A stretch of 64,000 bases of DNA, taken from the NCBI RefSeq assembly GCF_003096195.1, contig NZ_CP023004.1, positions 37,299 to 101,298 on the forward strand, written 5' to 3'. Origin of the DNA: Ereboglobus luteus (lineage in GTDB: Bacteria > Verrucomicrobiota > Verrucomicrobiia > Opitutales > Opitutaceae). The position numbers and the translations under genes were made by a program. Of the stretch, positions 2,281 through 56,579 are shown piece by piece (the first letter of the stretch is position 1; each line of letters opens with the position of its first letter). The notes beneath the pieces were generated by a model. That model made no database searches. It had not been told where the DNA came from and saw only the letters and a program-made list of their open reading frames with translations.

Positions 2281-4123
2281 CCCCCGCCTCGCTCAACATA
2301 ATCGGCGCGCGCGAAAACAACCTCAAAAACCTCTCCCTCGACATCCCGCACCACGGCCTCAACGTCGTCACCGGCGTCTCCGGCTCGGGCAAGTCCACGC
2401 TCGCGTTCGACATCGTTTTCGCCGAGGGCCAGCGCCGCTTCATGGAATCCATGTCGCCCTACGCGCGCCAGTTCGTCGAGCAACTCCCGCGCCCCGACAT
2501 CGACCTGCTCACCGGCATCCCGCCCACCGTCGCGATCGAGCAGCGCATCACGCGCGGCTCCCGCAAGTCCACCGTCGCCACCATCACCGAAGTCGCGCAA
2601 TACCTCCGCCTGCTCTACGCCCGCCTCGGCGTGCAGCACCACCCCGACACCGGCCGCCCCATTGTTCCGCTCACGCTCACGCAACTCCGCGCCCACCTCG
2701 CCAAAATCCTCGCCACCGACCCGCGCGCGAAGAAGGCAAAAAACTCTACCTCTGCGCCCCGCTCATCCGCGGACGCAAAGGCCACCACCAACCCATCGCC
2801 ACCTGGATCGAGAAACAAGGCTACACCCACATGCGCGCCGACGGAGACCTCTTCCCCGTCGAAAAATTCGAAAAACTCGACCGCTACAAAGAGCACAACA
2901 TCGAGGTGGTCGTGGCCGATTTGAAATCGGCCACGACCACCTCGAAGAGTGAAAAGCGAAGGGTGAAAAATGAAACACAAACCACTCAACCCACTCAACG
3001 TCCGCATCACTCGCCTGCGTCCGATTTTCACCCTTCACCCTTCACCCTTCACTCTTCCCTGGACGAGGCCCTCCGCCTCGGCCAGGGCTCCTGTTTCCTC
3101 CTCACAGGCGACAACAAAATCATCACCTGGCTCTCGACCACGCGCACCGATTCCGCCACGGGCGAGACATTCCCCGAACTCGATCCCAAGGACTTCTCGA
3201 TCAATTCCCCCCGCGGCTGGTGTCCCGCCTGTCGCGGACACGGGCGCATCTACCCTTGGATGCTCGCGCTCGACAAACAACAAAACGACACGCAGGAAAA
3301 CCGCGACATCGCGCTCCAACTCCGCGCCTACGGCATCTCCGACGCGGATGACATAAGCGACCACGGCCAGCCCTGCCCCGGATGCCACGGTGAACGCCTA
3401 AACCGCGTCGCGCGAGCAGTGCGCCTGCACTTTAGCGCCCCCGCCCCGATCGAAAAGAGTGAAGAGGGAAAGATGAAGAGTGAAAAGCAAGGCGCCAAAC
3501 GCCAGGCAACCAAACTCAAAGCCACTTCCGCTCCCTCTTTCACCCTTCACTCTTCACCCTTCAGCCTTTCCCTCCCCTCGCTCCTGCGCCTCACGCCGGG
3601 CGCGCTCCTCGCGCAACTTCGCCAGCTTGATCAAACCGACACCCGCACCCGCGCCATCACGCAGGACATCCTTCCGCAAATCGAGGAGCGCCTCCGATTC
3701 CTCGACCACGTCGGCCTCGGCTACCTCACGCTCGACCGCCCCACCGAAACGCTCAGCGGAGGCGAGTCGCAACGCATCCGCCTCGCCGCGCAACTCGGCA
3801 GCAACCTCAGCGGCGTGCTCTACGTGCTCGACGAACCTAGCATAGGATTGCACGCCCGCGACAACGACCGCCTGATCGAAACGCTCGAAACCCTCCGCGC
3901 CAAAGGCAACACGCTGCTCGTGGTCGAGCACGATGACGAACTCATGCGCCACGCCGACCGCATCATTGACCTTGGTCCCGCGGCGGGCATCCACGGCGGC
4001 GAGCTCCTTGCCAGCGGCACGCCGGAGGAAATCCGCCAAACCCCCTCCTCCATCACCGGTCTCTTCCTCAAAAAAGGCATCAAGCACCCCCTCCGCGGCG
4101 CCTACCGCCCGCTCCCGGCATGA
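2281..4123 (+). CDS. UvrA-like N-terminal ATPase module (Walker A, Zn fingers, signature I, Walker B) fused in-frame to the upstream uvrA through a low-complexity linker. Reading frame is broken by a -1 indel in an A6 run (2738-2743) and resumes in the +2 frame to the stop at 4123. Contains two in-frame palindromic-element insertions.
   Basis: [48 protein letters not shown] aligns to the E. coli UvrA N-terminus; no ATG/GTG/TTG start between 2150 and 2290. [24 protein letters not shown] then continues as [16 protein letters not shown] only in the other frame (needs A7, observed A6). Downstream [48 protein letters not shown]; ends at the equivalent of E. coli residue ~600. Confidence 0.6.
2905..2940. 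repeat. Perfect 14-bp-stem palindrome GTGGTCGTGGCCGAT-TTGAAA-TCGGCCACGACCAC inside the UvrA-like module, directly 5' of element 2944-3057.
   Basis: The left arm is native coding sequence (EVVVADL); the right arm is its exact inverted copy. Confidence 0.5.
2944..3057. repeat. Palindromic element, GAAGAGT/GAAGGGT-arm subfamily (core AAATGAAACACAAACCACTCAACCC..CGCCTGCGTCCGA), inserted in-frame in the UvrA-like module.
   Basis: Arms GAAGAGTGAAAAGCGAAGGGTGAAAAA / TTTTCACCCTTCACCCTTCACCCTTCACTCTTC; insert of ~44 aa between EVVVADL and [10 protein letters not shown]. Confidence 0.7.
3452..3566. repeat. Palindromic element, same subfamily as 2944-3057, second in-frame insertion in the UvrA-like module.
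   Basis: Arms GAAAAGAGTGAAGAGGGAAAGATGAAGAGTGAAAAGC / CTCTTTCACCCTTCACTCTTCACCCTTCAG; ~37 aa insert between VRLHF and [10 protein letters not shown]. Confidence 0.7.
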
Positions 4124-12265: not shown

Positions 12266-12325
12266 GGTAGGGCGAACCGTCTCGGTGAGCCGAAAATATT
12301 GCGACTCACCGAGACGGTTCGCCCC
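12266..12325. repeat. REP-like hairpin, GGTAGGGCGAACCGTCTCGGTGAGCCG..CGACTCACCGAGACGGTTCGCCCC (~22-bp stem), downstream of the ThuA-HEAT gene.
   Basis: One of three copies with conserved ends GGTAGGGCGAA / TTCGCCC. Confidence 0.6.
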
Positions 12326-18629: not shown

Positions 18630-18696
18630 GGTAGGGCGAACCGTCACGGTGAGCCGCAGCAACACACCCGGCTCACCGTGACGGTTCGCCCCTATC
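18630..18696. repeat. REP-like hairpin, GGTAGGGCGAACCGTCACGGTGAGCCG-loop-CGGCTCACCGTGACGGTTCGCCCC (perfect 23-bp stem), between the convergent trxA and coaD.
   Basis: Differs from copy 12266 by a compensated T/A to A/T pair in the stem. Confidence 0.6.
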
Positions 18697-37798: not shown

Positions 37799-39013
37799 TT
37801 GTTGTATAACAACAAACAATCACACATGCCGCCGCCGCTCAAAGAACGTCCCTCCAGCCTGCTCGAAGCAGCGCCGCCGTCGCGCCGCAAATCGCGCTAC
37901 GCGCTGCTCGAAACCGGGGACCCTGCGGATCGCCGCCGCACCATCGGCCTCGGCATTGTGCTCACCATCGGAGTCTGGCTCCTCTGCCTTTTCCTGTTCA
38001 ACCTGCTCATCACCCACCTCGACCGCCAGCACACCAGCAACACCGGCGACATCGCCACCCCGAAACCCACTTTCGACATCGAGCTCCAGCCCGAGGAGTT
38101 TCTCCTCCCCAAGCCGCCTCCCCCGCCCCCGCAAAACTTCGTCGAAACCAATCCCGACGCCCCCGAAAACATTCCCGACAAAACCGACAACTTCGGCGCG
38201 CACAACCAGCAGGCCGCGCAGGAAACGCCCACCCCCGGAGGCAAAAGCGACCGCCCCGCAATCGAGGGTCAGGACGAAATCGACTCCACTCAAATTGTTG
38301 ATGGCGATCTCCGCCAGCAACCCATCATCATCCCCCCGCCCCCGCCGCCCACGCCCGAACTCAAGGAGTCGAGCAGCGTCACCGAAGTCACTCCCGCCCA
38401 GCGCGAGCAAAACCCGCTCTCCGGCGAGCAGAAAATTCAGGGCGACAGCGAAACCGGCTACGGAATGAATGAATACAAACTTCCCGAAGTGCTGAAAGAC
38501 ATCACACCCGACGCCACCGAGCGCACCGAAGGCCTCCCCGACGCCCCGCTCATCACCGGTGTCCCCCAAACCACACAACCCCAAATCGACCCCAAGCGCC
38601 CGCAACCCCGCATCACGCTCAACCGGCAAAAAGTTCGTCCCGCAATTTTTAAGGAAAACAAATTCGGCACCCAAAACATCGGCGCCATGGCCTACGACGC
38701 CAAATGGAGCAACTACGGCCAGTATCTCCAAAAGTTGATCGACACCGTCCAAATCCAATTTGAGGACCTCAATGAAAAAAGCCGCTTCTGGCCGCCCACC
38801 GGCACGAAGGTCACCGTCCGCTTCATTCTCGATTCCGAAGGCAAGATCGCTGAAATCGTCGAGGCCGACGGCAACGGTGGCAGTCAGGCCACAAACATCT
38901 GCATGAGCGCGATCACCGACCGCGCGCCCTACGGCAAATGGACCGACGACATGATCGCCATCCTCGGCGAGAAACAGGAAATGACCTTCACCTTCTACTA
39001 CGGCAGGCCGTGA
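37799..39013 (+). CDS. TonB-like protein: N-terminal TM anchor, proline-rich spacer, C-terminal TonB-type domain.
   Basis: TM IGLGIVLTIGVWLLCLFLF; PPPPPP tracts; C-terminal GTKVTVRFILDSEGKIAEIVE. Confidence 0.6.
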   Translation: MLYNNKQSHMPPPLKERPSSLLEAAPPSRRKSRYALLETGDPADRRRTIGLGIVLTIGVWLLCLFLFNLLITHLDRQHTSNTGDIATPKPTFDIELQPEEFLLPKPPPPPPQNFVETNPDAPENIPDKTDNFGAHNQQAAQETPTPGGKSDRPAIEGQDEIDSTQIVDGDLRQQPIIIPPPPPPTPELKESSSVTEVTPAQREQNPLSGEQKIQGDSETGYGMNEYKLPEVLKDITPDATERTEGLPDAPLITGVPQTTQPQIDPKRPQPRITLNRQKVRPAIFKENKFGTQNIGAMAYDAKWSNYGQYLQKLIDTVQIQFEDLNEKSRFWPPTGTKVTVRFILDSEGKIAEIVEADGNGGSQATNICMSAITDRAPYGKWTDDMIAILGEKQEMTFTFYYGRP

Positions 39014-39900
39014 GCGAAATCCCGGGCCCAATCGACGACTACTGGCAAACACTCCCCCTCGGGCGCGGCGTGGCCGTCATCACCCGCGATCCCAACGGCC
39101 TCGTCGCCCTCAACAAACCCGCGGGCACCCTCTCCCACCCCAACGAATCCCGCGACCAGCCCCGTTCGCTCCTCAACGCCCCCTATGAACCCGACGGCGA
39201 ATATTATATGTGGAATGCGGAATGCGGAATGCGGATTTCGGAATTGCAAACCGACAAAACTGATCATGCCACTCGCCCGCCGCCTGCGTCCGATCATTCC
39301 GCATTCCAAAATCCGCATTCCACATTCAAAGAGGAATCCCGCCGACTCTGGCTGCTCAACCGCCTTGATTCCGCCACCTCCGGCGTGATCCTTGCCGCGA
39401 CCACGGAAGAACTCGCGCGCGAAATCCGCGCGCTCTTTCGCGAACGCCACATCAGCAAAACCTACGCCGCGCTCGTCTTCGGCAGCCCCTCCGAAAAAAC
39501 GCAACTCTGGCGCGACCGGCTCGCCGTGCAAAAACGCGGAGGCCAAATCCGCGCCGCCGCCCGGGCCGGAAACATCCCCGCCGAGGCGCGCATGAGCCTT
39601 CTGCGCACCAGCCGCAACACCCCCGCCGCAGCAGGCGCACCCATTTCGCTCATCCAGCTCGAACCCAAGACCGGACGCAGCCACCAGCTCCGGGTGCAAT
39701 GCGCCAGGCGCCGTCTTCCCATCATCGGCGACGCCACTTACGGCGATTTTCGAGCCAACCGCGACTTCGCCAAACGCACACGCGAAAAACGCCTATTTCT
39801 CCATTCGCTCGAAACCCGCTTCGACTACACCCACGCCGGACGCGCGTTCACCTTCGCCGCCAAGGCTGACCTCCCTGGGGCGTTCACCGCGCATCTTTGA
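39010..39900 (+). CDS. RluA-family pseudouridine synthase (GTG start overlapping the upstream stop, GTGA) carrying an in-frame palindromic-element insertion (39207-39333).
   Basis: LNKPAGTLSHP..RLDSATSGVILAA..catalytic Asp in LNRLD; PsiRSP-like C-terminus. Inserted ~42 aa (YYMWNAECGMRISELQTDKTD..HSTFKEES) lies in the loop before the HRLD motif. Confidence 0.8.
   Translation: MSEIPGPIDDYWQTLPLGRGVAVITRDPNGLVALNKPAGTLSHPNESRDQPRSLLNAPYEPDGEYYMWNAECGMRISELQTDKTDHATRPPPASDHSAFQNPHSTFKEESRRLWLLNRLDSATSGVILAATTEELAREIRALFRERHISKTYAALVFGSPSEKTQLWRDRLAVQKRGGQIRAAARAGNIPAEARMSLLRTSRNTPAAAGAPISLIQLEPKTGRSHQLRVQCARRRLPIIGDATYGDFRANRDFAKRTREKRLFLHSLETRFDYTHAGRAFTFAAKADLPGAFTAHL
39207..39333. repeat. Palindromic element (GGAATGC heptad arms; core ..CACTCGCCCGCCGCCTGCGTCCGATC) inserted in-frame in the RluA-family gene.
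   Basis: TGGAATGCGGAATGCGGAATGCGGATTTCGGAATTGCAAA ... ATTCCGCATTCCAAAATCCGCATTCCACATTCAAAG; the core shares CGCCTGCGTCCGAT with element 2944-3057. Confidence 0.7.
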
Positions 39901-40792: not shown

Positions 40793-41229
40793 GGGACAGA
40801 ATGAACAAAATTAAAAAAATGGGAGAGACTCCAAGCTACGATTTGGCCGGCCAAATCATAGGGCTCGCCATGAAAGTTCATTCAACGCTCGGCGGCGGAT
40901 TTCTCGAATCTGTTTATCAAAACGCGCTCGCCTTTGAACTGACTCGAGCAGGCATGGCTTTCCAAACAAGCGTCCCCCTCAAGGTGAAATACGAAGGCGC
41001 AATTGTCGGTGAGTTCGAAGCCGACATGCTCATCGCCAATACGCTCATTATCGAAAACAAAGCCGTCCAAACCCTCGCCGTCGCCCATGAGGTTCAACTT
41101 GTCAATTATCTTACCGCCACCGGCATCAACGAAGGACTTCTTCTCAATTTCGGCGCGGAAAAACTCCAGTTCAAAAAGAAATTCCGCACATACCGGGCCG
41201 CCGGCCCCAATTGATCTTCATTCTGTTCC
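40793..41229 (+). mobile_element. GxxExxY gene cassette bounded by 12-bp inverted repeats (GGGACAGAATGA ... TCATTCTGTTCC, 11/12 match), inserted between rplT and pheS.
   Basis: The IR-L includes the gene's ATG; it lies downstream of the rplT terminator and upstream of the pheS start. Confidence 0.4.
40801..41214 (+). CDS. GxxExxY family protein (PD-(D/E)XK superfamily) inserted between rplT and pheS.
   Basis: GGGFLESVYQNAL (GxxExxY), E..D..K core ..EFEADMLIANTLIIENK; homologous to the 53343-53726 gene. Confidence 0.75.
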   Translation: MNKIKKMGETPSYDLAGQIIGLAMKVHSTLGGGFLESVYQNALAFELTRAGMAFQTSVPLKVKYEGAIVGEFEADMLIANTLIIENKAVQTLAVAHEVQLVNYLTATGINEGLLLNFGAEKLQFKKKFRTYRAAGPN

Positions 41230-41271
41230 ATTCCGTTAATTCTGTCTAAAAACACTTCCCAAAATTTCCAC

Positions 41272-42320: not shown

Positions 42321-42497
42321 AGCAGTGAGCGGCGGGTAGCGAGTAGTGAGTAGAAAAAATCACCGCTCGCCCCGCTCGCAACCAACCTTAAAAATTTTCA
42401 CAACCATCACACCATCCTCCCACCACCATGCGGGCGCAGCCCGCCACTGACATCCTACTCGCTACCCGCTACTCACTACTCGCTACTTTTTCTTCCT
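42321..42497. repeat. Palindromic element (AGTGAGC/AGCGAGT/AGTGAGT heptad arms) filling the pheS-pheT intergenic region; the right arm ends 3 nt before the pheT ATG.
   Basis: GCAGTGAGCGGCGGGTAGCGAGTAGTGAGTAGAAAAAA ... CTACTCGCTACCCGCTACTCACTACTCGCTACTTTTTCTTCC. Confidence 0.65.
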
Positions 42498-46901: not shown

Positions 46902-47008
46902 CCAAAGCGAGCAAACGATAGTCCAGCAAAGTGGTCTTGGCAAACCCGACGGCGCACTCGTGGCGTCAGCCTCGCTGATCAAACAGGCAAACTTGGCAGT
47001 CCGCGCTA

Positions 47009-47030
47009 CAAAAAAACGGCGTCCGTTTTA
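47009..47030 (-). terminator. Terminator after pnp (minus strand; symmetric A7-ACGG-CGT-CCGT-T4, so potentially bidirectional).
   Basis: Minus strand reads AAAACGGACGCCGTTTTTTT. Confidence 0.55.
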
Positions 47031-47076
47031 TGGGACACCGTTGAGTGTTTGTGAATGTTGATGACCTTTCCGCTGC

Positions 47077-49290
47077 TTAGCTGGCCGGGGTTTCCGGAGC
47101 GGCGGGAGGAGGCGTGTCGGCGGCGGGTGCGGCTTCGCCGTTGGCGGCTTGCTGCTGGGTTTCCATTTCCTTCATCGCGGCTTTGCGCGAGAGGCGGACT
47201 TTGCCGGAGCGCTCGTCGATGCCGATGCACTTGACCCACATTTCGTCACCGACTTTGCAGACGTCCTCGGTGCGGCGCACGCGGAAATCAGCGAGTTCGC
47301 TGATGTGCACGAGGCCTTCCTTGCCGGGGATGCATTCGACAAAGGCGCCGAATTCTTTCGTGCCTTTCACGACGCCGCGGTAGAGCTTGCCGACTTCGAT
47401 TTGCGCGCCACCGCCGCAGAGGATGTCGATTTCCTGGATGGCGCGGGCCATCGAGTCGGCGTTGTTCGAGTAGATGAAGACCTTGCCGGAGTCGTCCTCG
47501 GCGATGTCGATTTGCGCGCCGGTGGTCTCGACGATGCGACGGATGGTCTTGCCGCCCGGGCCGATGAGGAGGCCGATGTTGTCCGGATCGATCTGGATGG
47601 TCTGGATGCGCGGCGCGTAGGTGCTGAGCTGGGCGCGGGGCGCGGGGATCGAGGCGAGCATGACTTTCAGGATTTCAATGCGCGCGTCGCGGGCCTGATA
47701 GATGGCTTTCTTGGCGATCTCGAAGGGGAGGCCGTTGATCTTGAGGTCGAGCTGGAAGCCGGTGATGCCGGTGGTGGTGCCGGCGAGCTTGAAGTCCATG
47801 TCGCCGAAGTGATCTTCCTCGCCGAGGATGTCGGTGACGGTGACCCATTTGGAGATCGAGCCGTCATCGGCGTTCTCGGTCATGAGGCCGCAGGAGATGC
47901 CGGCGACGGGCGCGATGATGGGCACGCCGGCGTCCATGAGCGAGAGGCAGCCGCCGCAGATGGAGGCCATCGAGGTGGAGCCGTTGGAGGCCATGATGTC
48001 GGAGACGACGCGGATCGAATACGGGAAGACGTCCTCGGGCGGGAGCACGGGAACGAGGGAGCGCTCGGCGAGCGCGCCGTGGCCGACTTCGCGGCGGCCG
48101 GGGCTGCCGAAGCGGCCGGTTTCGCCGACGGAATACGGCGGGAAGTTGTAGTGGAGGATGAACGATTTCGACTTGGCGCCGCCGGTGAGGGCGTCGAGGT
48201 CCTGGGCTTCCTTGGTGGGGCCGAGGGTGGTGGTGACGATGGTCTGGGTGTCGCCGCGCTTGAACATGGCGGAGCCGTGCACGCGGGGGAGGATGCCGGC
48301 CTCGGCGGCGATGGGGCGCAGCGAGGTCGAGTCGCGTCCGTCGGCGCGGGTGCCGCGTTCGAGAACGGCCTTGCGGTAGGCGCTGTATTGGAGGTCTTCG
48401 AAGACGATGCCGATGTCGTGGTCCGCGAAATTGCCTTCGCCGAGCTCGGCGGTGAGGGCGGCTTTGCACTCCTCCTTGAGGGCGGCGACGTTGGCGGAGC
48501 GAACTTGTTTTTCCTTGCCGAAGATGGCGTCAACGATCTTGGGGGCGGCGATGCGCTCGACGATGGCGCGGGCCTCGGGCTTGGCGGAGACGAGCGGGTA
48601 TTCGCGCTTGGGTTTGCCGGCGATGGAGACGAGCTGCTTGATTCCGGCGATGATGGGCTGGATGGCCTTGTGCGCAAATTCGAGCGCCTCGATGAAGCGG
48701 TCCTCGGGGAGCTGCGCGGCGGAGCCCTCGATCATGAGCATGTCTTTTTCGGTGCCGACGTAGATGAGGTCGAGGTCGGACGAATACATTTGCTCGATGG
48801 TGGGGTTGGCGACGAACTGGCCGTCGATCTGGCCGACGCGCACGGCGCCGATGGGGCCGGACCAGGGAATGTCGGAGATGGCGAGCGCGGCGCTGGCGCC
48901 GTTGACCATGGAGATGTCGGCGTCGTTGATTTGGTCGGCGGAGAGGAGCAGGCCGATGACCTGCACTTCATTGAGGAAGCCGGCGGGAAAGAGCGGACGG
49001 CAGGGGCGGTCGCAAAGGCGCGAGGTGAGGATTTCCTTTTCGGAGGGGCGGCCTTCGCGCTTGAAATAACCCCCGGGGAAACGTCCTGCGGCGGAATATT
49101 TTTCGCGGTAATCGACTGTGAGCGGGAAGAAGTCCTGGCCGGGCTTGATGTTTTCGGCGGCGGTGGCGGCGACGAAGAGCGTGGTTTCGCCGACTTGGAC
49201 GGTGACCGCGCCGTTGGCGAGGTGCGCGAGCGAGCCGGTGCCAAAGGTGATGCCGAGCTCGGGGACTGTGACTGTGTGTTTTTGATTCAT
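47077..49290 (-). CDS. pnp: Polyribonucleotide nucleotidyltransferase (PNPase); start at MNQKHTVTV (the upstream part of the ORF is element sequence).
   Basis: Two RNase PH domains, KH, S1 ([11 protein letters not shown]), 737 aa. Confidence 0.95.
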
Positions 49291-49482
49291 GTTCGTATTT
49301 TGGATTTTGTATTCTCGATTTTGGATTGATGAACCACGGAAGATAATTCGAGAGGGTATTGATGGTTTCCGGGTTTTGTTTTTTAACCGCGAATGGACGC
49401 TAAAGGACGCGAATAAATACAAATGAAACACGGGTCGAAAATCGGCCTGTTATTCGCGTCTATTCGCGTTCGTTCGCGGTTC
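49291..49482. repeat. Composite element in the rpsO-pnp intergenic/pnp leader: CCAAAAT-heptad arm abutting the pnp ATG (49291-49328), plus a palindrome with CGCGAAT-type arms and core AAATGAAACACGGG (49387-49482).
   Basis: CCGCGAATGGACGCTAAAGGACGCGAATAAATAC-AAATGAAACAC..-TTATTCGCGTCTATTCGCGTTCGTTCGCGGTTC; both arm types are also found in the uvrA linker 2152-2278. Confidence 0.55.
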
Positions 49483-49694
49483 TAAATCTCTGACTGGTTT
49501 TTATTATGGGCAAAAACTCGCGGACAATGGTGTTCGCGTTGCTTTTGCCGGGAGGTGTCTTTTTTGCATCCTCGTTCAGTGTTCGAGAGATTTCCGTTTG
49601 GCGCCTGCGCTGTTTTTTGCGGCGGAAGAGACAAGCGGAAATGTCCCGGAATCTGTGGCGAGTGTCGTTGGCTGCGCGGGGCAGTTAAGACAAC

Positions 49695-49719
49695 GGGCGA
49701 CCCGCGGATCGGGTCGCCC
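49695..49719 (-). terminator. Hairpin after rpsO (rpsO terminator / pnp leader structure).
   Basis: GGGCGACCCG-CGGATC-GGGTCGCCC ~20 nt past the rpsO stop. Confidence 0.5.
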
Positions 49720-49737
49720 GTGTGCTGAAAAGAGTGG

Positions 49738-50001
49738 TTAGCGACGGAGGCTGAGCCTTTGCAGCATCTCGTTATACTTGGGCAGATCGTTGCGCTTCAA
49801 GTAATCGAGGAGTTTGCGGCGGCGGCTGGCCATCTGGAGAAGGCCGCGGCGGCTGTGGAAGTCCTTGCGATGCGTGCGCAGATGCTCGGTCAAGTGATTG
49901 ATGCGAGCGGTGAGCAACGCGATCTGGACTTCGGAAGAGCCGGTGTCCTTCTCGTGTGTTTTGAACTGACTGATGATTTCTGGTTTTACTACTGTTGACA
50001 T
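49738..50001 (-). CDS. rpsO: 30S ribosomal protein S15.
   Basis: [48 protein letters not shown]. Confidence 0.9.
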
Positions 50002-50384
50002 GTGGTTTTGTGGTTTTGAACTGCACGACCGTAGGGGCGCCTTGTTGAAGGGCGTCCGCGCAACCCGCTCCTGCCTGCGAAGTTGTGAGACAACGCGGGC
50101 GTTTGCCGGTGGCACCGTTCCAATCCGGCGGGATGCCGGACCGGTCATGGTGGGAATCCGCAACCGACGGACTTCCACTAACGCAAGCCGCGATATATCT
50201 AGGAGCGCGCAAGGCGGCGCAAGAAGAATTTACGCAAATCCTCACGGAGTCGACCTCGCGAATGCCCCCACCCTTTCCCAAAAAATTCGATAGGACCCAA
50301 AACACACTCATCGTCACCACCCAAACCTTTGTCCGGAAAAACGCAGGGAACCCCACACACACGCATTGTGCGCGCATCGAATGC

Positions 50385-51821
50385 TCACTTTGCGATCAGC
50401 TTTATCAGCGCGGCGCGGTCGGTTTTGCCGCGCTGGGTGAGCGGGAATGCCGGCAGCACAACAATGCGGTCGGGGATTTTCCACGCGGCGAGACGCGGGG
50501 TGAGCTGGCGGCGGATGTCGGCGGCGGTCGGCGAGGGCGCGTCGCTGGCGACGGCGGCGGCGATGGCGTCGGGGCGCGTTGGATGCGCGGCGACAAAGGC
50601 TTCGCGCACACCGGGCAGGGCGCGGAGCATCGTTTCCACTTCGCCGGGGTCGAGACGGCGGCCCGCGATTTTCAGCGTGCGTCCGGCACGGCCAAGCAGG
50701 GTGAGTTCGCCGGCAGGGTTGAATTCACCGCGATCGGGCGGCGAATAGCGTCCGCGTCCGTGGACAGAGGGGCTTTCGACGGTGAAGCGTTTGCCGCGGC
50801 GGAAGGTGATGCGCACGCCGTCGATGAGTTGCCCGATGGCGCGGCCAGTTTCCGCGGCGTCGCCTTTGCGGTCGTAGGCGATGCCGCCGGTTTCGCTGGT
50901 GCCGTAGAAATTGTGGACGTGTTTGCCGTATTTGTTTGCGAAAGCGAGCGCGTCGGCGGGCTGGAGCGGCGCGCCGGCGGAAATGACGAGGCGCAGGCTG
51001 GCGAGCGCGGCGGGCGAAACGTCGGTGCTTGAGAGCGCGCGCAGGAGCGTGGGCACGGCGGGAAAAACGGTCGGTTTCCAACGGGCGCAATCGGCGGCGA
51101 TGGATTGCGGAAACGGGCTGGCGGCGCTGAGGAGGGGCGTGCCTTGTTCGAGGAGCGGAATGACGAGGTGGCCGAGTCCGTAGGAGTGCCCGAAGGGGAT
51201 GATGCCAAGGTTGAGGTCGCCGGGGCTGATGCGCATGGTTGCGCAAATCTGGCGTCCGTCGGCGAGCATTTGCGTGTGGGTGAAAACGAGCGCCTTGGGA
51301 ACGCCGGTGCTGCCGCTGGTGAGTTTGATGAGCAATTCGTCGCGGCGTCGAACGGGCGGGCGAGGCGCGAGCAGGGTGAGTTCACCGTCGCGCAAGATCG
51401 AGGCAGCGCGGCTGACGTCGGCAATGGCGGCAAGGCGGTCGGGTGTTTCCTTGGAGTCGGCGAGCGCGGGGACAGCACCGATTTCGAGCAGACCGAGGAA
51501 GATGTAAAACCAGCGCGCGCTGTTCGGCTCGGCCATGACCACGCGGCGACGCGTGATGTGCGCGCGGGTGTCGGTGGGAAGTGAATCGAGCCAGACACGT
51601 GCGGCGGCGGCGAGTTCAGCGCGACTCCAGACGCGCGCGGTGTCGCCGTCGATGACGGCGGTGGCGGATGGCGATTGCGCGACAAGTGCGCGCCAGGTGG
51701 CGAGGAGGTTTGTTGGGTAGGGCGAAACCTCCGGCTGAGCCGATTGCTTTTTCGCGTTCGGTGACAATTCCGGCTCAGCCGGAGGCTTCGCCCTACCTTT
51801 GGTATCGCCGACCGGAGCCAT
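50385..51821 (-). CDS. AMP-dependent synthetase/ligase (acyl-/aryl-CoA ligase family); start ATG overlaps the gatB stop (TAATG). Its 5' end contains a GGTAGGGCGAA-family hairpin in-frame.
   Basis: AMP-binding motifs LTSGSTGVPKA, YGTSETGG, ..GDxxxxxxDG..; 478 aa. Confidence 0.75.
   Translation of the reverse strand: MAPVGDTKGRAKPPAEPELSPNAKKQSAQPEVSPYPTNLLATWRALVAQSPSATAVIDGDTARVWSRAELAAAARVWLDSLPTDTRAHITRRRVVMAEPNSARWFYIFLGLLEIGAVPALADSKETPDRLAAIADVSRAASILRDGELTLLAPRPPVRRRDELLIKLTSGSTGVPKALVFTHTQMLADGRQICATMRISPGDLNLGIIPFGHSYGLGHLVIPLLEQGTPLLSAASPFPQSIAADCARWKPTVFPAVPTLLRALSSTDVSPAALASLRLVISAGAPLQPADALAFANKYGKHVHNFYGTSETGGIAYDRKGDAAETGRAIGQLIDGVRITFRRGKRFTVESPSVHGRGRYSPPDRGEFNPAGELTLLGRAGRTLKIAGRRLDPGEVETMLRALPGVREAFVAAHPTRPDAIAAAVASDAPSPTAADIRRQLTPRLAAWKIPDRIVVLPAFPLTQRGKTDRAALIKLIAK
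51715..51797. repeat. REP-like hairpin, variant GGGTAGGGCGAAACCTCCGGCTGAGCCG-loop-CGGCTCAGCCGGAGGCTTCGCCCTACC, lying within the 5' coding region of the AMP-ligase gene (translated in-frame).
   Basis: Same conserved termini as copies 12266 and 18630; the stem interior differs on both sides so pairing is kept. Confidence 0.6.
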
Positions 51822-53290
51822 TATTCTGCCAACAGACGGCGGAGGGTTTCATCAACTAACTTCGGGTTCGCTTTGCCTTTGCTGGCTTTCATTACGGGGC
51901 CTTTTAGGCCGTTGATGGCACTTTCCTTGCCGGCTCGGAATTCTTCGGCGGCTTTGGCGTTGGCGGCTATCGCGTCGCGGCACCATTGTTCGAGTTCGTT
52001 GGCGTCGGTCGGGACGGCTTTTAGGTTTTTGCGGTCGGCGATTGGCTCAGGGGCGTCGCCGGTGGCGAACATTTCGGCGAAGACTTCCTTGGCGGTGTTG
52101 GTTGTGAGCGTGCCGGCGGCGATGAGTTTAACGAGCGCGACGAGGTGCGCGGGCGGGATTTTTGCGACGGCTTCCTTGAAGGTGGCCTTGGTCGCGCCGA
52201 GTTCGCGGAGGAGGTCGTTGGTGATCCAGTTGCCGAGGGGTTGCGCGAGCGCGGGGGCGTCGGAGCCGGCGAGTTTCACGGCGGCGTCGTAGTAGTCGGC
52301 GAGGGGTTTGTCCCAGATGAGGACGGAGGTGATTGTGTAGGGGAGATTGTGGTCGGCCATGAGGCGGCGCTGTCGGTCGAAGGGGCGCTCGGGGAGCGTG
52401 GCGGCAAGGGAGTTTTTCCACTCGGCGCTGACGTGCACGGGCATGAGGTCGGGGTCGGGGAAGTAGCGGTAGTCGTGCGCGTCCTCCTTGGTGCGGAGCG
52501 ATTGCGAGACGCCGGTCAGTCCGTCGTAATCGCGGGTTTCCTGGACGACGGAGCCGCCTTTTTCAACGAGGGCGGTCTGGCGCTTGATTTCGTGCTCGAT
52601 GGCGTCGCGGACGTAGGAGATGGAGTTGAGGTTTTTCATCTCGACCTTGGTGCCGAGCGTGGTCGAGCCGACGGGGCGGATGGAGACGTTGGCGTCGCAG
52701 CGCATCTGGCCTTTTTCCATGTCGCAATCGGAGACGCCGCCTTGCTGCATCGTGGCGCGGAGGATGGTGAGGAACGCGGCGGCTTCGTCGCCGCTGGCGA
52801 GCGCGGGTTCGGTGACGAGTTCCATGAGCGGGGTGCCGGCGCGGTTGTAATCGACGAGCGACTCGGTAGCGAAGTGGTTGAGCTTGCCAACATCCTCCTC
52901 GAGGTGGATGCGGTTGAGCGGAATCGTCTTGTGCTCGCCCATGATGTTGCGCGCGGAGCCGGGGAGTTCGATTTCGACGGAGCCGCCGAGGCAGATGGGG
53001 GCGAACTGCTGTGTGAGCTGGTAGTTTTTGGGCGAGTCGGGGTAGAAGTAGTTTTTGCGGTCCCAACGGCATTCGTCGGCGATGCGGCAGTTGACGAGGA
53101 GGCCGGCGCGGATGATCTGGTCGATGGCGGCTTTGTTGAGCACGGGCAGCGCGCCGGGAAGCGCGAGGACAACCGGGTCGGTGAGCGTGTTGGGTTCGTG
53201 CCCGTAACCGGAGGCGGCACGGGTGAACATTTTTGTGCGGGTCTTGAGCTGGATGTGAACTTCAAGACCGATGACGGCTTCGTATTTCAT
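51821..53290 (-). CDS. gatB: Asp-tRNA(Asn)/Glu-tRNA(Gln) amidotransferase subunit B.
   Basis: MKYEAVIGLEVHIQL.., full-length GatB with C-terminal YqeY-like domain. Confidence 0.95.
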   Translation of the reverse strand: MKYEAVIGLEVHIQLKTRTKMFTRAASGYGHEPNTLTDPVVLALPGALPVLNKAAIDQIIRAGLLVNCRIADECRWDRKNYFYPDSPKNYQLTQQFAPICLGGSVEIELPGSARNIMGEHKTIPLNRIHLEEDVGKLNHFATESLVDYNRAGTPLMELVTEPALASGDEAAAFLTILRATMQQGGVSDCDMEKGQMRCDANVSIRPVGSTTLGTKVEMKNLNSISYVRDAIEHEIKRQTALVEKGGSVVQETRDYDGLTGVSQSLRTKEDAHDYRYFPDPDLMPVHVSAEWKNSLAATLPERPFDRQRRLMADHNLPYTITSVLIWDKPLADYYDAAVKLAGSDAPALAQPLGNWITNDLLRELGATKATFKEAVAKIPPAHLVALVKLIAAGTLTTNTAKEVFAEMFATGDAPEPIADRKNLKAVPTDANELEQWCRDAIAANAKAAEEFRAGKESAINGLKGPVMKASKGKANPKLVDETLRRLLAE

Positions 53291-53311
53291 TTTTTTGGAA
53301 AAATTCTTTTT

Positions 53312-53792
53312 TTAACCACGGAGGACACGGAGAGGCACGGAGTCAGAGGACTCTGCGAAATATGCCATCCTTGAGCAGGGGAACGTTGAAATTGATGAGG
53401 AAACCGATGCGGTGTCCGGAGAGTTTTAGGTAGGTGATGAGTTGCGCCTCGTGAACGTCGTGCAGTTCTTCCACCGCCTTGAGTTCAAGGATGACTTCGT
53501 TTTCCACTAGCAAATCCAAACGATAACCAACGTCGATGAGGGAACCCTTATAGTTCACGGGCACTTCTTTTTGGCGCTCATATTCCAGGCCCCTCAGTCC
53601 GAGCTCGAATGCGAGGGCGGCCTCATAGGTTGACTCAAGCAGTCCCGGCCCGAGCACCTTGTGCACCTCAATGGCCGCTCCGATAATTTTCTCTGTGAGT
53701 TCTTCCTGCAACAACGTGGTTTTCATTTGGAGGATTAAAATAAACCGGTCATCTCTGTATTCTCCGTGTTTCTCAGTGTTCTCCGTGGTTAA
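53312..53792 (-). mobile_element. GxxExxY cassette: 31-bp terminal inverted repeats TTAACCACGGAGGACACGGAGAGGCACGGAG / CTCCGTGTTTCTCAGTGTTCTCCGTGGTTAA flanking the GxxExxY gene; inserted in the gatA-gatB spacer.
   Basis: The TIRs abut the gene stop (53343) and lie 5 nt from the gatA stop and 21 nt from the gatB start; the TIRs contain a CACGGAG periodic repeat. Confidence 0.6.
53343..53726 (-). CDS. GxxExxY family protein (PD-(D/E)XK superfamily), inserted between gatA and gatB and bounded by 31-bp terminal inverted repeats.
   Basis: GPGLLESTYEAAL (GxxExxY); ..YRLDLLVENEVILELK core; 127 aa. Confidence 0.8.
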   Translation of the reverse strand: MKTTLLQEELTEKIIGAAIEVHKVLGPGLLESTYEAALAFELGLRGLEYERQKEVPVNYKGSLIDVGYRLDLLVENEVILELKAVEELHDVHEAQLITYLKLSGHRIGFLINFNVPLLKDGIFRRVL

Positions 53793-53796
53793 TAAA

Positions 53797-55251
53797 TCAG
53801 AGATTCGGCAGGTGCTTCGCCCAGTCGTGCGCGCTGTCGTAGGCGTGGGCGATTGAGAGCAACTCGGCTTCCTTGAAGGGCTGGCCGATGAGTTGCACGC
53901 CGATCGGGAGGCCGGTTTGCGTGAAGCCGCAGGGCATGCTCAGGCCGGGGAGTCCGGCCATGTTCACGCCGATGGTGTAGATGTCGCCGAGGTAGGCTTC
54001 GAGGGGCGTCTTGTGCGAGCCTTTGAGGAAGGCGGGCGTGGGCGAGGTGGGCGCGATGATGGCGTCAACTTGCTTGTAGGCGTCGATGAAATCCTGGCGG
54101 ATGAGCGTGCGGACTTTTTGCGCGCGCAAATAATAGGCGTCGTAATATCCGCTGCTGAGAACGTAGGTGCCGAGGATGATGCGGCGCTTGACTTCCTCGC
54201 CGAAACCTTCGGCGCGGGTTTTCGAGTAGATGTCAACGGCGTCGGTCGCGGCGGTCGAGCGGTGACCGTAGCGAATGCCATCGAAACGGGCCATGTTGGA
54301 GGAGCACTCGGCGGTCGCGACGATGTAGTAAACGGCGATGCCGTATTCGGTGTGCGGGAGCGAGACTTCGCGGATTTCGCAGCCTTGGTTTTTGTAGAAA
54401 TTGATCGCGGTTTGGACGGCGGCGGCGACTTCGGGGTCGAGTCCGTCGCCAAAATATTCCTTCGGGACGCCGAGCCGCCACGGGCCTTTTTTCTGGTGGA
54501 GCGCGGCGCGGTAGTCGGGGATTTCGGCGAGGATGGAAGTGGAGTCGAGCGGGTCGTGCCCGGCGATGGCGGAGAGCATGATGGCGGCGTCCTCGACAGT
54601 GCGGGCGATGGGGCCGACTTGGTCGAGCGAGGAGGCGTAGGCGGAGACGCCGTAGCGCGAGACGAGGCCGTAGGTGGGCTTGAGGCCGACGAGGTTGCAG
54701 AACGACGCGGGCTGGCGGATCGAGCCGCCGGTGTCAGTGCCGAGCGCGGCGGTGACTTCGCCCGCGGCGATGGCGGCGGCGCTTCCGCCGGAGGAGCCGC
54801 CCGCAACGCGCGCGAGGTCGTAGGGGTTGTTGGTGGGACCCATCGCGGAATTTTCGGTGGAGGAACCCATCGCAAATTCGTCGAGATTGAGGCGTCCCCA
54901 AAAGACGGCGCCGGCTTCGCGGAGCTTGCGCGTCACGGTGGCGTCGTAGGGCGAGATGTAATTGGCGAGCATCTTCGACGAGGCTGTGAGCGGCTGATCC
55001 TTTACGGAGATGATGTCCTTGAGGCCGACGGGAATGCCGTCGAGCGGGCCGAGCGTTTTGCCTGCGGCGCGGCGTTCGTCGGACGCGCGAGCTTGGGCGA
55101 GCGCGGCGGCTTCGTCGAAGGAATTGAACGCGCCGACGCGGGAATCAACGGCCTTGGTGCGGTCGATGCAGGCTTGGAGGAGTTCGACGGCGGAGATCGC
55201 GCGGGAGTCGAGTTGCGAGGAGACTTGGGTGAGCGGGAGGTTGATTGGCAT
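53797..55251 (-). CDS. gatA: Glutamyl-tRNA(Gln) amidotransferase subunit A (amidase signature).
   Basis: GGSSGGSAAAIAAG amidase signature, 484 aa. Confidence 0.95.
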   Translation of the reverse strand: MPINLPLTQVSSQLDSRAISAVELLQACIDRTKAVDSRVGAFNSFDEAAALAQARASDERRAAGKTLGPLDGIPVGLKDIISVKDQPLTASSKMLANYISPYDATVTRKLREAGAVFWGRLNLDEFAMGSSTENSAMGPTNNPYDLARVAGGSSGGSAAAIAAGEVTAALGTDTGGSIRQPASFCNLVGLKPTYGLVSRYGVSAYASSLDQVGPIARTVEDAAIMLSAIAGHDPLDSTSILAEIPDYRAALHQKKGPWRLGVPKEYFGDGLDPEVAAAVQTAINFYKNQGCEIREVSLPHTEYGIAVYYIVATAECSSNMARFDGIRYGHRSTAATDAVDIYSKTRAEGFGEEVKRRIILGTYVLSSGYYDAYYLRAQKVRTLIRQDFIDAYKQVDAIIAPTSPTPAFLKGSHKTPLEAYLGDIYTIGVNMAGLPGLSMPCGFTQTGLPIGVQLIGQPFKEAELLSIAHAYDSAHDWAKHLPNL

Positions 55252-55286
55252 CGGAAACAGGAGAGGGATTCGGGCGGTTGTTTTAA

Positions 55287-55380
55287 TTAACCACGGAGGA
55301 CACGGAGAGCGCGGAGGGACGGAAGAAGATGAGTTTGGAGTTTTGTTTTTCTCCGGGAACTCCGTGTTCTCCGTGGTTAA
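55287..55380. repeat. Solo 94-bp palindrome with the same TIRs as the GxxExxY cassette (TTAACCACGGAGGACACGGAGAGCGCGGAG ... CTCCGGGAACTCCGTGTTCTCCGTGGTTAA) but no ORF; sits in the gatC-gatA spacer.
   Basis: ~90% identity of both ends to 53312-53342 and 53762-53792. Confidence 0.7.
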
Positions 55381-55394
55381 TCTTTCTGAGTGAG

Positions 55395-55688
55395 TTATTC
55401 GACGACCTTGGGCACACTGATCATATTGTCGCGCTGGGCGGGGGCGTTGCGGAGGGCTTCGTCGGCGGTGAAGCCGGGCGTGACGTTGTCCTCGGCCCAG
55501 ACGTTGGAAATGGGGAAGCCGTGCGCGGTCGGCTCGATGCCGGTGATGTCAACGCGCTTGAGCTGATCGACGTATTTGAGGACGTCGCCGAGCTGCGCGG
55601 CGAACTTCTCCTTTTCGTCGGGCGCGAGGTCGATGCGCGCGAGCGAGGCGAGTTTTTCGATGTCGAGATTTGGTGATGTGGCGGCCAT
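55395..55688 (-). CDS. gatC: Glutamyl-tRNA(Gln) amidotransferase subunit C.
   Basis: IEKLASLARIDL..EKFAAQLGDVLKYVDQL. Confidence 0.85.
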   Translation of the reverse strand: MAATSPNLDIEKLASLARIDLAPDEKEKFAAQLGDVLKYVDQLKRVDITGIEPTAHGFPISNVWAEDNVTPGFTADEALRNAPAQRDNMISVPKVVE

Positions 55689-55835
55689 GTGAAAAATAAG
55701 AGGATGATCCGTTCTGAGAAAGTTGCACAGAAGGAAATGAAGGGAATTTCAAGAAAATCCGGCTTCCATTCGCAAGCTATTGATTGCATCCCTTCGGCCT
55801 TTAAACTTAGACTTTGCCTAACTTGATTCCTCGTA

Positions 55836-56525
55836 ATGAATTTCTTGGCAACAACCCCACGGCCATTTAAGCGCATCTTGCGTGCACTCCTCCTATCCAC
55901 GCTCCTGTCGGCAACAGCTTTTGCAACAGCGCAAATGCCGGACATTTTAATATATAAAGGGGAAGAATATTCTCTTCATATAAATCCGCTTGATGAGTTT
56001 TTTTACAAAAATCCCGACGTGAAATTGCCAAAATCATCCACCCTCGTAATATCATCGGCATTATGGCGTGGATACCTTGCCACGTTTGAAATTAAAAATG
56101 ATTATTTTTTTATCAAGAACGTGCAAACACTGACCGGCGATGGGAAAGGCACAGCCGAATCAAGATGGAAAAGCGTGATCAATGATATCTTCAAGGAGAC
56201 AATGAGCAGGCGACTTGATTGGTTTTCGGGATTACTGATTTTGCCCCGAGGAAAAGTGGTTGATTATGTCCACTTAGGATATGCATCTACCTTTGAAAAT
56301 TATACGCTACTAGAGATAGACAAGGGGAAATGTGTTAAAGAAAGGCATTTTTCAACCGAAGGGTATTCTAAATTTAAAAAGAAACAATTCAAGGCGTTTA
56401 AAAAAACTGATGAATACAATAGACTTATTAATAAATTTAATGAACAAGGAGTGAGTAAAAAACGAGCAATTGCAAATATAAGAAATCGAGTAGTTTATTA
56501 CTCAAAAAAGATACTGGTTGACTGA
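55836..56525 (+). CDS. Hypothetical secreted protein, markedly low GC (~38%).
   Basis: Signal peptide; composition atypical for this replicon. Confidence 0.45.
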   Translation: MNFLATTPRPFKRILRALLLSTLLSATAFATAQMPDILIYKGEEYSLHINPLDEFFYKNPDVKLPKSSTLVISSALWRGYLATFEIKNDYFFIKNVQTLTGDGKGTAESRWKSVINDIFKETMSRRLDWFSGLLILPRGKVVDYVHLGYASTFENYTLLEIDKGKCVKERHFSTEGYSKFKKKQFKAFKKTDEYNRLINKFNEQGVSKKRAIANIRNRVVYYSKKILVD

Positions 56526-56579
56526 TGTATTTCAAAAATCACTCAAGTTTAGCCATTAAAGCGGCCAGTCGGAAACAAT

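Follow-up and report, generated by a model that had tools for sequence, protein, structure and literature searches.

The window, by which we mean the whole 64-kb stretch of Ereboglobus luteus DNA that was analysed, carries the gatCAB operon on its minus strand, and two spacers of this operon hold hairpin-bounded elements (Table 1). Between gatC and gatA lies a 94-bp palindrome that contains no gene, and between gatA and gatB lies a longer cassette of the same family with a gene for a GxxExxY protein. Two further elements, around pheS, bear on the interpretation and are listed with them.

Table 1 Features of the gatCAB region and related elements (positions in the window)
Feature	Position	Strand	Context and details
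94-bp ORF-less palindrome (hairpin element)	55287..55380	.	gatC-gatA spacer
Left arm of 94-bp element	55287..55316		TTAACC, then 7-mers CACGGAG, CACGGAG, CGCGGAG, 9-10-nt period
Core (loop) of 94-bp element	55317..55350		34 nt; C/A-rich on gatCAB sense strand
Right arm of 94-bp element	55351..55380		CTCCGGG, CTCCGTG, CTCCGTG, then GTTAA
gatC	55395..55688	minus	TIGR00135
gatA	53797..55251	minus	TIGR00132
gatB	51821..53290	minus	
Cassette, same family as 94-bp element	53312..53792	minus	481 bp, gatA-gatB; arms 53312-53342 and 53762-53792
GxxExxY gene (PDDEXK_3)	53343..53726	minus	127 aa; TIGR04256 / PF13366; co-oriented with gatCAB
Second GxxExxY cassette	40795..41246	+	rplT-pheS; ORF 40801-41214; arms of GACAGAAT type
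ORF-less palindrome, 7-nt-period arms	42321..42487	+	pheS-pheT

Two elements with common ends in the gatCAB operon

Read along the window, the 94-bp element consists of TTAACCACGGAGGACACGGAGAGCGCGGAG (arm), GGACGGAAGAAGATGAGTTTGGAGTTTTGTTTTT (34-nt core) and CTCCGGGAACTCCGTGTTCTCCGTGGTTAA (arm). A repeat search placed its inverted repeat at 55286-55316 and 55351-55381, with 31-nt arms that are 87% complementary and 34 nt apart; for the cassette it returned 53308-53342 and 53762-53796, with 35-nt arms, 86% complementary and 419 nt apart. On the gatCAB sense strand the 94-bp element is predicted to fold at -41.3 kcal/mol (z -9.25), and on the plus strand at -54.5 kcal/mol (z -7.98), none of 200 shuffles being as stable in either case, and the A.C mismatch in the stem falls on the sense strand. 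When up to three mismatches were allowed, the 21-mer TTAACCACGGAGRACACGGAG matched the window at exactly four places, the ends of the 94-bp element and of the gatA-gatB cassette, while 100 dinucleotide shuffles gave an expectation of no match by chance. A preliminary description, made from the letters of the window, had reported an ORF-less palindrome in the gatC-gatA spacer that reproduces both terminal inverted repeats of the cassette, and both statements hold. Their common ends make the 94-bp element and the cassette members of one family, of which gatCAB thus has two insertions, as had also been claimed.

The gatC-gatA spacer is 143 bp long, and the hairpin stands 35 nt upstream of the gatA start. 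The ORFs that cross the element are mechanical ones of 44-127 aa, none of them plausible as a gene. It is the only ORF-less CACGGAG copy within the window. In size and build the element had been likened to heptad-arm palindromic elements; strict heptad arrays its arms are not, since the CACGGAG 7-mer recurs every 9-10 nt, whereas most other palindromes of the window have a true 7-nt period. An Rfam scan of the whole window at the gathering threshold yielded one tRNA only, and a permissive scan of the 94-bp element gave only sub-threshold matches to generic miRNA-precursor hairpins. We found no promoter-like sites in 53200-55800 and no rRNA genes within the window. We also considered an intrinsic terminator and rejected it: the sole terminator-like call is a 5-bp sub-stem on the plus (antisense) strand, and the sense strand continues UUAAUUAAAAC.

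Several other repeats of the window are recorded here as separate observations. Periodic-arm palindromes lie within the uvrA-like ORFs 30-2924 and 2831-4123 (at 915-1048, 1779-1880, 2155-2285, 2944-3057 and 3455-3562) and within the pseudouridine synthase ORF 38938-39900 (at 39208-39327), and these in-ORF copies are read through in frame as low-complexity linkers. At 2830-2924 the uvrA-like reading frame changes, ORF 30-2924 overlapping ORF 2831-4123 in another frame; the second of these begins an apparent second UvrA unit, and the change could reflect a frameshift, a pseudogene or a sequencing error. In the rpsO-pnp spacer (49297-49486), a TTAACCGCGAAT-armed palindrome adjoins a solo ATTTTGG array, which resembles the arms of the gatC-gatA palindrome of a sister genome (L001, see below); in E. 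coli the pnp leader hairpin, which RNase III cuts, occupies the equivalent spacer. Repeats of another kind, unrelated to these, are the REP-like GC-rich hairpins GGGCGAACCGTC.CGGTGAGCCG and the related GGTAGGGCGAAACCTCCGGCTGAGCCG (12270-12324, 18634-18691, 51716-51797).

The gene in the gatA-gatB cassette is under purifying selection, with a dN/dS of 0.15 between the window and L001. In 45 GxxExxY sequences the residues E41, D71, E81-x-K83 and Q95xxxY99 are invariant and make up the RecB/Cas4 motif set; GxxExxY is therefore predicted to be an active DNA nuclease. From an AlphaFold model together with these conserved motifs, we infer a small PD-(D/E)XK nuclease of Cas4/RecB type. Among solved structures none had a significant sequence match to the protein. 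The family is large, with more than 8000 relatives of GxxExxY/PF13366 at E <= 1e-10 in one search, and we found no GxxExxY genes in cultured phages. The closest proteins, 71-77% identical, are all encoded at gatA-gatB within CACGGAG arms (L208, L221, L222), and GatA and GatB of the relatives with this cassette are 70-73% identical, a divergence that matches that of GxxExxY. Taken with the dN/dS of 0.15, this agreement means that the gatA-gatB cassette is an old, selected resident.

Beyond that site, a 67%-identical GxxExxY protein in an Anaerolineae genome (L217) is encoded between aroA and aroE within arms of the same type, so that the ORF-bearing members with these arms include Verrucomicrobia (L082, L208, L221, L222), a planctomycete (L034) and this Anaerolineae genome. 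The second GxxExxY protein of the window is 37% identical to the first. Its GACAGAAT-type arms are found also in same-site relatives of its cassette and in a Lentisphaerae copy with a 72%-identical protein. Arm type follows the GxxExxY protein clade, W1-like proteins going with CACGGAG arms and W2-like ones with GACAGAAT arms, but not exclusively. As a separate observation, in a Geminisphaera/TAV4 genome (L205, 1501-3384) a GxxExxY gene with a CACGGAG palindrome on each side stands immediately upstream of the bAvd and reverse transcriptase genes of a diversity-generating retroelement. The IVS protein S23p is a homologue of Avd (PMC10053308).

Spread of the arm motif and history of the spacers

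We scanned one genome per species, 596 Gb in all, with the pattern TTAACCACGGAGNACAC, which spans 17 nt with 16 fixed bases. The pattern matched at least 120 genome loci, set against a chance expectation of ~280 matches for 16 fixed bases in 596 Gb. Among the matches listed, the second 7-mer is complete in 102 of 128 (2% expected by chance) and the third is present in 86 of 128 (0.4%). With the further 7-mers so far above chance, most TTAACCACGGAGNACAC matches must be real relatives, and the other genomic copies on which the preliminary description depended thus exist in number. They are spread over most bacterial phyla and come from Verrucomicrobia, Bacteroidota, Planctomycetota, Spirochaetes, Acidobacteriota, Chloroflexota, Nitrospirota and Gemmatimonadota, as well as from several proteobacterial classes, one cyanobacterium and others, in many independent assemblies and isolates.

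An inverted partner arm accompanies 79 of the matches listed, and the resulting elements measure 49-647 bp, the median being near 100 bp. The usual form among them is an ORF-less palindrome of 50-260 bp, with a GxxExxY gene or other cargo only occasionally; the GxxExxY ORF itself occurs, among the matches listed, in the window cassette, in L082 (451 bp, arms 26/26 complementary) and in L034. Truncated GxxExxY ORFs, which intermediates between the two forms should contain, were absent from the ORF-less palindromes of these 79 partner-armed elements. The two arms of an element covary: their identity is 0.677 as against 0.538 with shuffled partners, and none of 2000 shuffles reached the observed value. 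Cores show no conservation across phyla, and other periodic-arm palindromes are nested within some elements. A tandem array of four like-oriented CACGGAG arms, ~100 bp apart, takes the place of isolated palindromes in L035 (3295-3613) and L054 (Treponema MAG).

Viral contigs contain the motif as well, and 82 of 101 matches there are real arms. They flank other, unannotated ORFs for which no Pfam match was found, and the N-termini of these ORFs (MTTEDTE) are encoded by the arm. Since the same arms surround other cargo, they form a general cassette boundary and not the private ends of a GxxExxY transposon. A related observation concerns L082 (6200-6613) and the viral contigs L242 and L247, in which the cargo ORF starts at or just outside the arm and has an acidic N-terminus, MLTTEDTE or MTTEDTE; some copies of the viral-contig or L082 type have ATGACC in place of the terminal TTAACC, so that the start codon is supplied by the element. 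Our literature search, incomplete in coverage, found no description of CACGGAG arms, GxxExxY cassettes, in-frame palindromes of Verrucomicrobia or Ereboglobus repeats; a paper on the Coxiella intervening sequence was the sole relevant one found.

The gene-less units spread independently. An Opitutaceae MAG (L113) has, in frame within a purL-like ORF, a 98-bp copy that aligns with the 94-bp element over its full length (78% identity over 100 bp). It shares with the 94-bp element the odd third 7-mer CGCGGAG, which the gatA-gatB cassette does not have, and its core, not that of the cassette, is the nearest relative of the 94-bp core. Copies are also dispersed within other single genomes, as in one Bdellovibrionales MAG (L041/L122), where two are 96% identical over ~120 bp in unrelated flanks, and in L052 and L205.

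ORF-bearing and ORF-less forms both occupy orthologous sites. At gatA-gatB a GxxExxY cassette is present in the window, L001, L208, L221 and L222 and an ORF-less palindrome in L126 and L128. At pheS-pheT, the place of the window palindrome 42321-42487 is taken in the relatives L329 and L330 by an S23p cassette (23S_rRNA_IVP, PF05635; L329 4081-4516) with the same boundaries and arm type. This is the only 7-nt-period palindrome whose ORF-bearing counterpart could be traced, and that counterpart is an S23p cassette, not a GxxExxY one, which does not support the derivation of such palindromes from GxxExxY-type cassettes. In a GatB tree, L126 and L128 (ORF-less), L125 (another palindrome) and L127 (no insert) fall between two cassette-bearing groups, a topology that suggests ORF loss, with internal branches that are short. 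In L205 the GxxExxY gene is flanked on both sides by complete ~120-bp palindromes, 96% identical to each other, and recombination between these would leave a solo palindrome.

The gatC-gatA spacer itself has a recent history. In the sister genomes L001 and L002 (Ereboglobus sp. PH5-5 type), GatC is identical and the DNA is 97% identical along window positions 46972 to 55252, and the gatA-gatB cassette is retained with the same arms at 96% identity. From the gatA start to the gatC stop, however, their spacer is non-homologous and contains an unrelated palindrome with ATTTTCG/CGAAAAT arms. Among more distant relatives, with GatA 62-72% identical, one or both of the spacers are 3-20 nt long in L127 and L130-L132, and others have yet other periodic-arm palindromes in their gatCAB spacers. 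Given inserts so varied and spacers so short among relatives, both gatCAB spacers are prone to insertion, and the 94-bp element was gained, or replaced another insert, recently in this lineage of Ereboglobus luteus. A precise empty site that would define the insertion mechanism was not found among the relatives compared. Large gatC-gatA gaps in distant phyla were examined as possible cassettes and set aside; they contain panD-like ORFs (start MFRQMLR, by eye) or other ordinary genes. Next to gatC, at 55697-56576, the window has an insert of ~880 bp, apparently AT-rich, which L001 and L002, otherwise collinear, lack; its 229-aa ORF (55836-56525) has a signal-peptide-like N-terminus.

Proposed mechanism and alternative explanations

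The best explanation, to which we assign a probability of roughly 0.6 with its inferred steps included, is that the 94-bp element belongs, as a member without a gene, to a family of hairpin-bounded mini-cassettes spread by horizontal transfer. Each arm has three CACGGAG repeats about one helical turn apart and a TTAACC cap, and the two arms pair to form an interrupted stem of ~30 bp whose short loop is free sequence. Where other members of the family have a promoter-less GxxExxY gene, it occupies this loop, and one such member lies 1.5 kb away between gatA and gatB. We infer that the gatCAB mRNA includes the 94-bp element and that in this transcript the element forms a long double-stranded stem, which by analogy with the intervening sequences (IVS) of 23S rRNA is a likely substrate of RNase III. 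The operon transcript would then be cut between gatC and gatA with both ORFs unharmed, which would explain why such elements are tolerated in operon spacers. An element without a gene would spread only with help in trans, for which a candidate is break-and-repair copying started by a nuclease of the family (for example GxxExxY) on the hairpin or cruciform, or plain recombination. Loss of the gene in the loop may turn ORF-bearing forms into ORF-less ones, one possible route being recombination between palindromes that flank it, as they do in L205.

Nothing indicates that the stem is maintained as RNA on the sense strand. Among 27 elements with co-directional flanks, stem stability has no sense-strand bias (15 sense versus 12 antisense) and neither do positions of the G.U type (49 versus 45). 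In the window the sense strand of every one of the 10 cores is C/A-rich; we discount this polarity as evidence, since an equally strong sense-strand skew runs through the whole genome. GC skew across the window runs from -0.2 to -0.28 where genes are on the plus strand and is about +0.2 where they are on the minus strand, the sense strand being rich in C and A.

The preliminary description had gone further and taken the ORF-less palindromes for non-autonomous derivatives of GxxExxY cassettes. Dispersed copies and the presence of both forms at orthologous sites speak for this, and the same arms around other cargo speak against it. Its most local version, an internal deletion of the gatA-gatB cassette or of a copy, followed by a 1.5-kb hop with GxxExxY as transposase, appears improbable to us. 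The left 23 nt of the element are identical to the left end of the cassette, the right 21 nt match the cassette at 20/21 positions and its L001 ortholog at 21/21, and the two lie close together in one operon. Yet copies in L082, L048, L113 and L011 match the arms as well as the neighbour does or better, the core and the third 7-mer (CGCGGAG/CTCCGCG) are held in common with L113 and not with the cassette, and the cassette is old and vertically inherited, its protein having diverged in step with GatA/GatB (70-77% identity). Descent from the neighbouring cassette is accordingly not demonstrable, with arms at least as close to the copies of other genomes and a core that matches L113. The element has no remnant of an ORF and no target-site duplication, and there is no direct repeat outside the arms. 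We considered TTAA as a target duplication and rejected it, because the palindrome itself ends in TTAA and copies differ at the opposite end (GGTTCA, GGTGAA, GGTAAA). For these reasons of derivation, duplication, cargo and nuclease, "autonomous element plus MITE" is an analogy and not a shown mechanism. "MITE-like" describes how the element behaves; as for membership, it has neither a target duplication nor a known transposase. The finding is nevertheless real, and more general than the preliminary description supposed.

A host hairpin that evolved in place, serving gatCAB mRNA processing or stability or uncoupling gatC from gatA translation, would not be mobile at all. The strong stem so close upstream of the gatA start would suit such a role, and the gatC-gatA spacers of L001, L126 and L128 have some hairpin too. 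These hairpins are unrelated in sequence even between strains 97% identical, however, other relatives have no spacer at all, the same element recurs in an unrelated gene and in unrelated genomes, and the sense strand has no U-tract terminator, all of which makes this origin a poor prospect. The absence of strand bias in stem stability and wobble positions accords with a site that acts as DNA in the manner of attC or REP, folded as single strand or cruciform and served by a recombinase or nuclease encoded elsewhere, with GxxExxY and S23p as passengers. Different cargo within the same arms, conservation of the arm sequence across phyla beyond what pairing requires, and a size range of 50-150 bp like that of attC point the same way. 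Against it, the cassettes are single and sit inside housekeeping operons, with no cassette arrays and no adjoining integrase, their ends fit the attC core sites RYYYAAC/GTTRRRY poorly, and neither GTAG/CGTC tags nor a RAYT gene was seen; we regard it as unlikely. A chance inverted repeat or assembly artefact can be given next to no weight: a general caveat about mis-assembly applies, as two Logan contigs of relatives end within the spacer, but the motif occurs in no shuffle, the fold stands at z -8 to -9, and homologous copies are present in many independent assemblies and isolates.

Returning to a mobile family of hairpin-bounded mini-cassettes, a wider reading is possible, although we hold it tentatively and think it rather less probable than its negation. 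The 94-bp element would be the tip of an undescribed pan-bacterial superfamily that includes the 23S rRNA IVS, and the periodic 7-mer arms would be sequence-specific recognition sites of a dedicated mobilisation machinery and not mere pairing partners. The GxxExxY Cas4-like nuclease and the S23p/Avd-like four-helix bundle would be parts of this machinery, and gene-less copies would be mobilised in trans, cross phyla and settle in operon spacers, in rRNA and in frame inside proteins. That a heptamer of GACAGAT type occurs both in GxxExxY cassettes and in the S23p IVS of Coxiella, and CACGGAG around unrelated viral cargo, argues against arms that serve as recognition sites for GxxExxY alone.

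The origin and mobility of 23S rRNA IVS have been in question since about 1990, and a larger family, with members in mRNA spacers and coding regions, with S23p or a Cas4-like nuclease and with abundant gene-less forms, would provide presence/absence comparisons and a testable enzyme candidate. It would also offer a proposed biological setting for two large uncharacterised protein families, GxxExxY/PF13366 and S23p/PF05635. On the practical side, the hairpins break assemblies and leave spurious N-terminal extensions (MLTTEDTE) and low-complexity linkers in annotated proteins.

Comparison with known systems

Like a MITE, the 94-bp element is short, without coding capacity, and bounded by 31-nt terminal inverted repeats; these are shared with a GxxExxY cassette whose protein is a predicted nuclease and no known transposase. 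The Correia or nemis elements of Neisseria are likewise ORF-less, about 100-150 bp long, with terminal inverted repeats, and dispersed, often in co-transcribed operon spacers. Their hairpins have been reported as RNase III substrates, and the elements are known from one genus only and have TA target duplications. In contrast, the CACGGAG arm motif is common to several phyla, and its copies show no duplication and are not known to have a transposase-bearing parent.

In the REPIN-RAYT system, a few gene-bearing copies are flanked by palindromic repeats that are also scattered, gene-less, in the genome (PMC3116915). The sharing of palindromic ends by gene-bearing and gene-less copies is the likeness. 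RAYT, however, is an HUH tyrosine transposase and REPs are GTAG/CGTC-tagged and lineage-specific, whereas the elements described here have TTAACC ends, a PD-(D/E)XK (or S23p) gene and periodic 7-mer arms across phyla. From integron attC sites they differ in occurring singly in housekeeping operons, with no neighbouring integrase and only a loose fit to the core sites. Rickettsia palindromic elements, about 100-150 bp long, can insert in frame into protein-coding genes, as do the L113 copy in its purL-like ORF and the palindromes in the window's uvrA-like and pseudouridine synthase ORFs; the sequences are unrelated, and neither periodic arms nor an ORF-bearing form is known among the Rickettsia elements.

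The nearest described kind is the 23S rRNA IVS of Coxiella, Leptospira and Salmonella. The Coxiella IVS has a 28-bp terminal stem, formed by AGAAGA and then tandem GACAGAT heptamers (in the stem arm GACAGAT three times, then GACAGAA, in a copy number that varies between strains), may contain an S23p ORF, and undergoes cleavage by RNase III (PMC4990558). The 94-bp element differs in its location, an mRNA operon spacer (for the L113 copy a coding sequence) and not helix 25 or 45 of 23S rRNA; in its arm period of 9-10 nt versus 7; and in the cargo of the long forms with CACGGAG arms, which is GxxExxY (PF13366) and not the S23p (PF05635) four-helix bundle. The plan is nevertheless the same: a variable loop is enclosed by a long stem of paired terminal inverted repeats, short forms of about 100 nt that lack an ORF stand beside forms of 400-750 nt with a small promoter-less ORF, and the stem arm is built of periodic heptamers, as the 94-bp element has three 7-mers per arm. 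The Coxiella heptamer is, moreover, almost the arm 7-mer of the window's second GxxExxY cassette, and an S23p cassette occupies the site orthologous to the window's own pheS-pheT palindrome.
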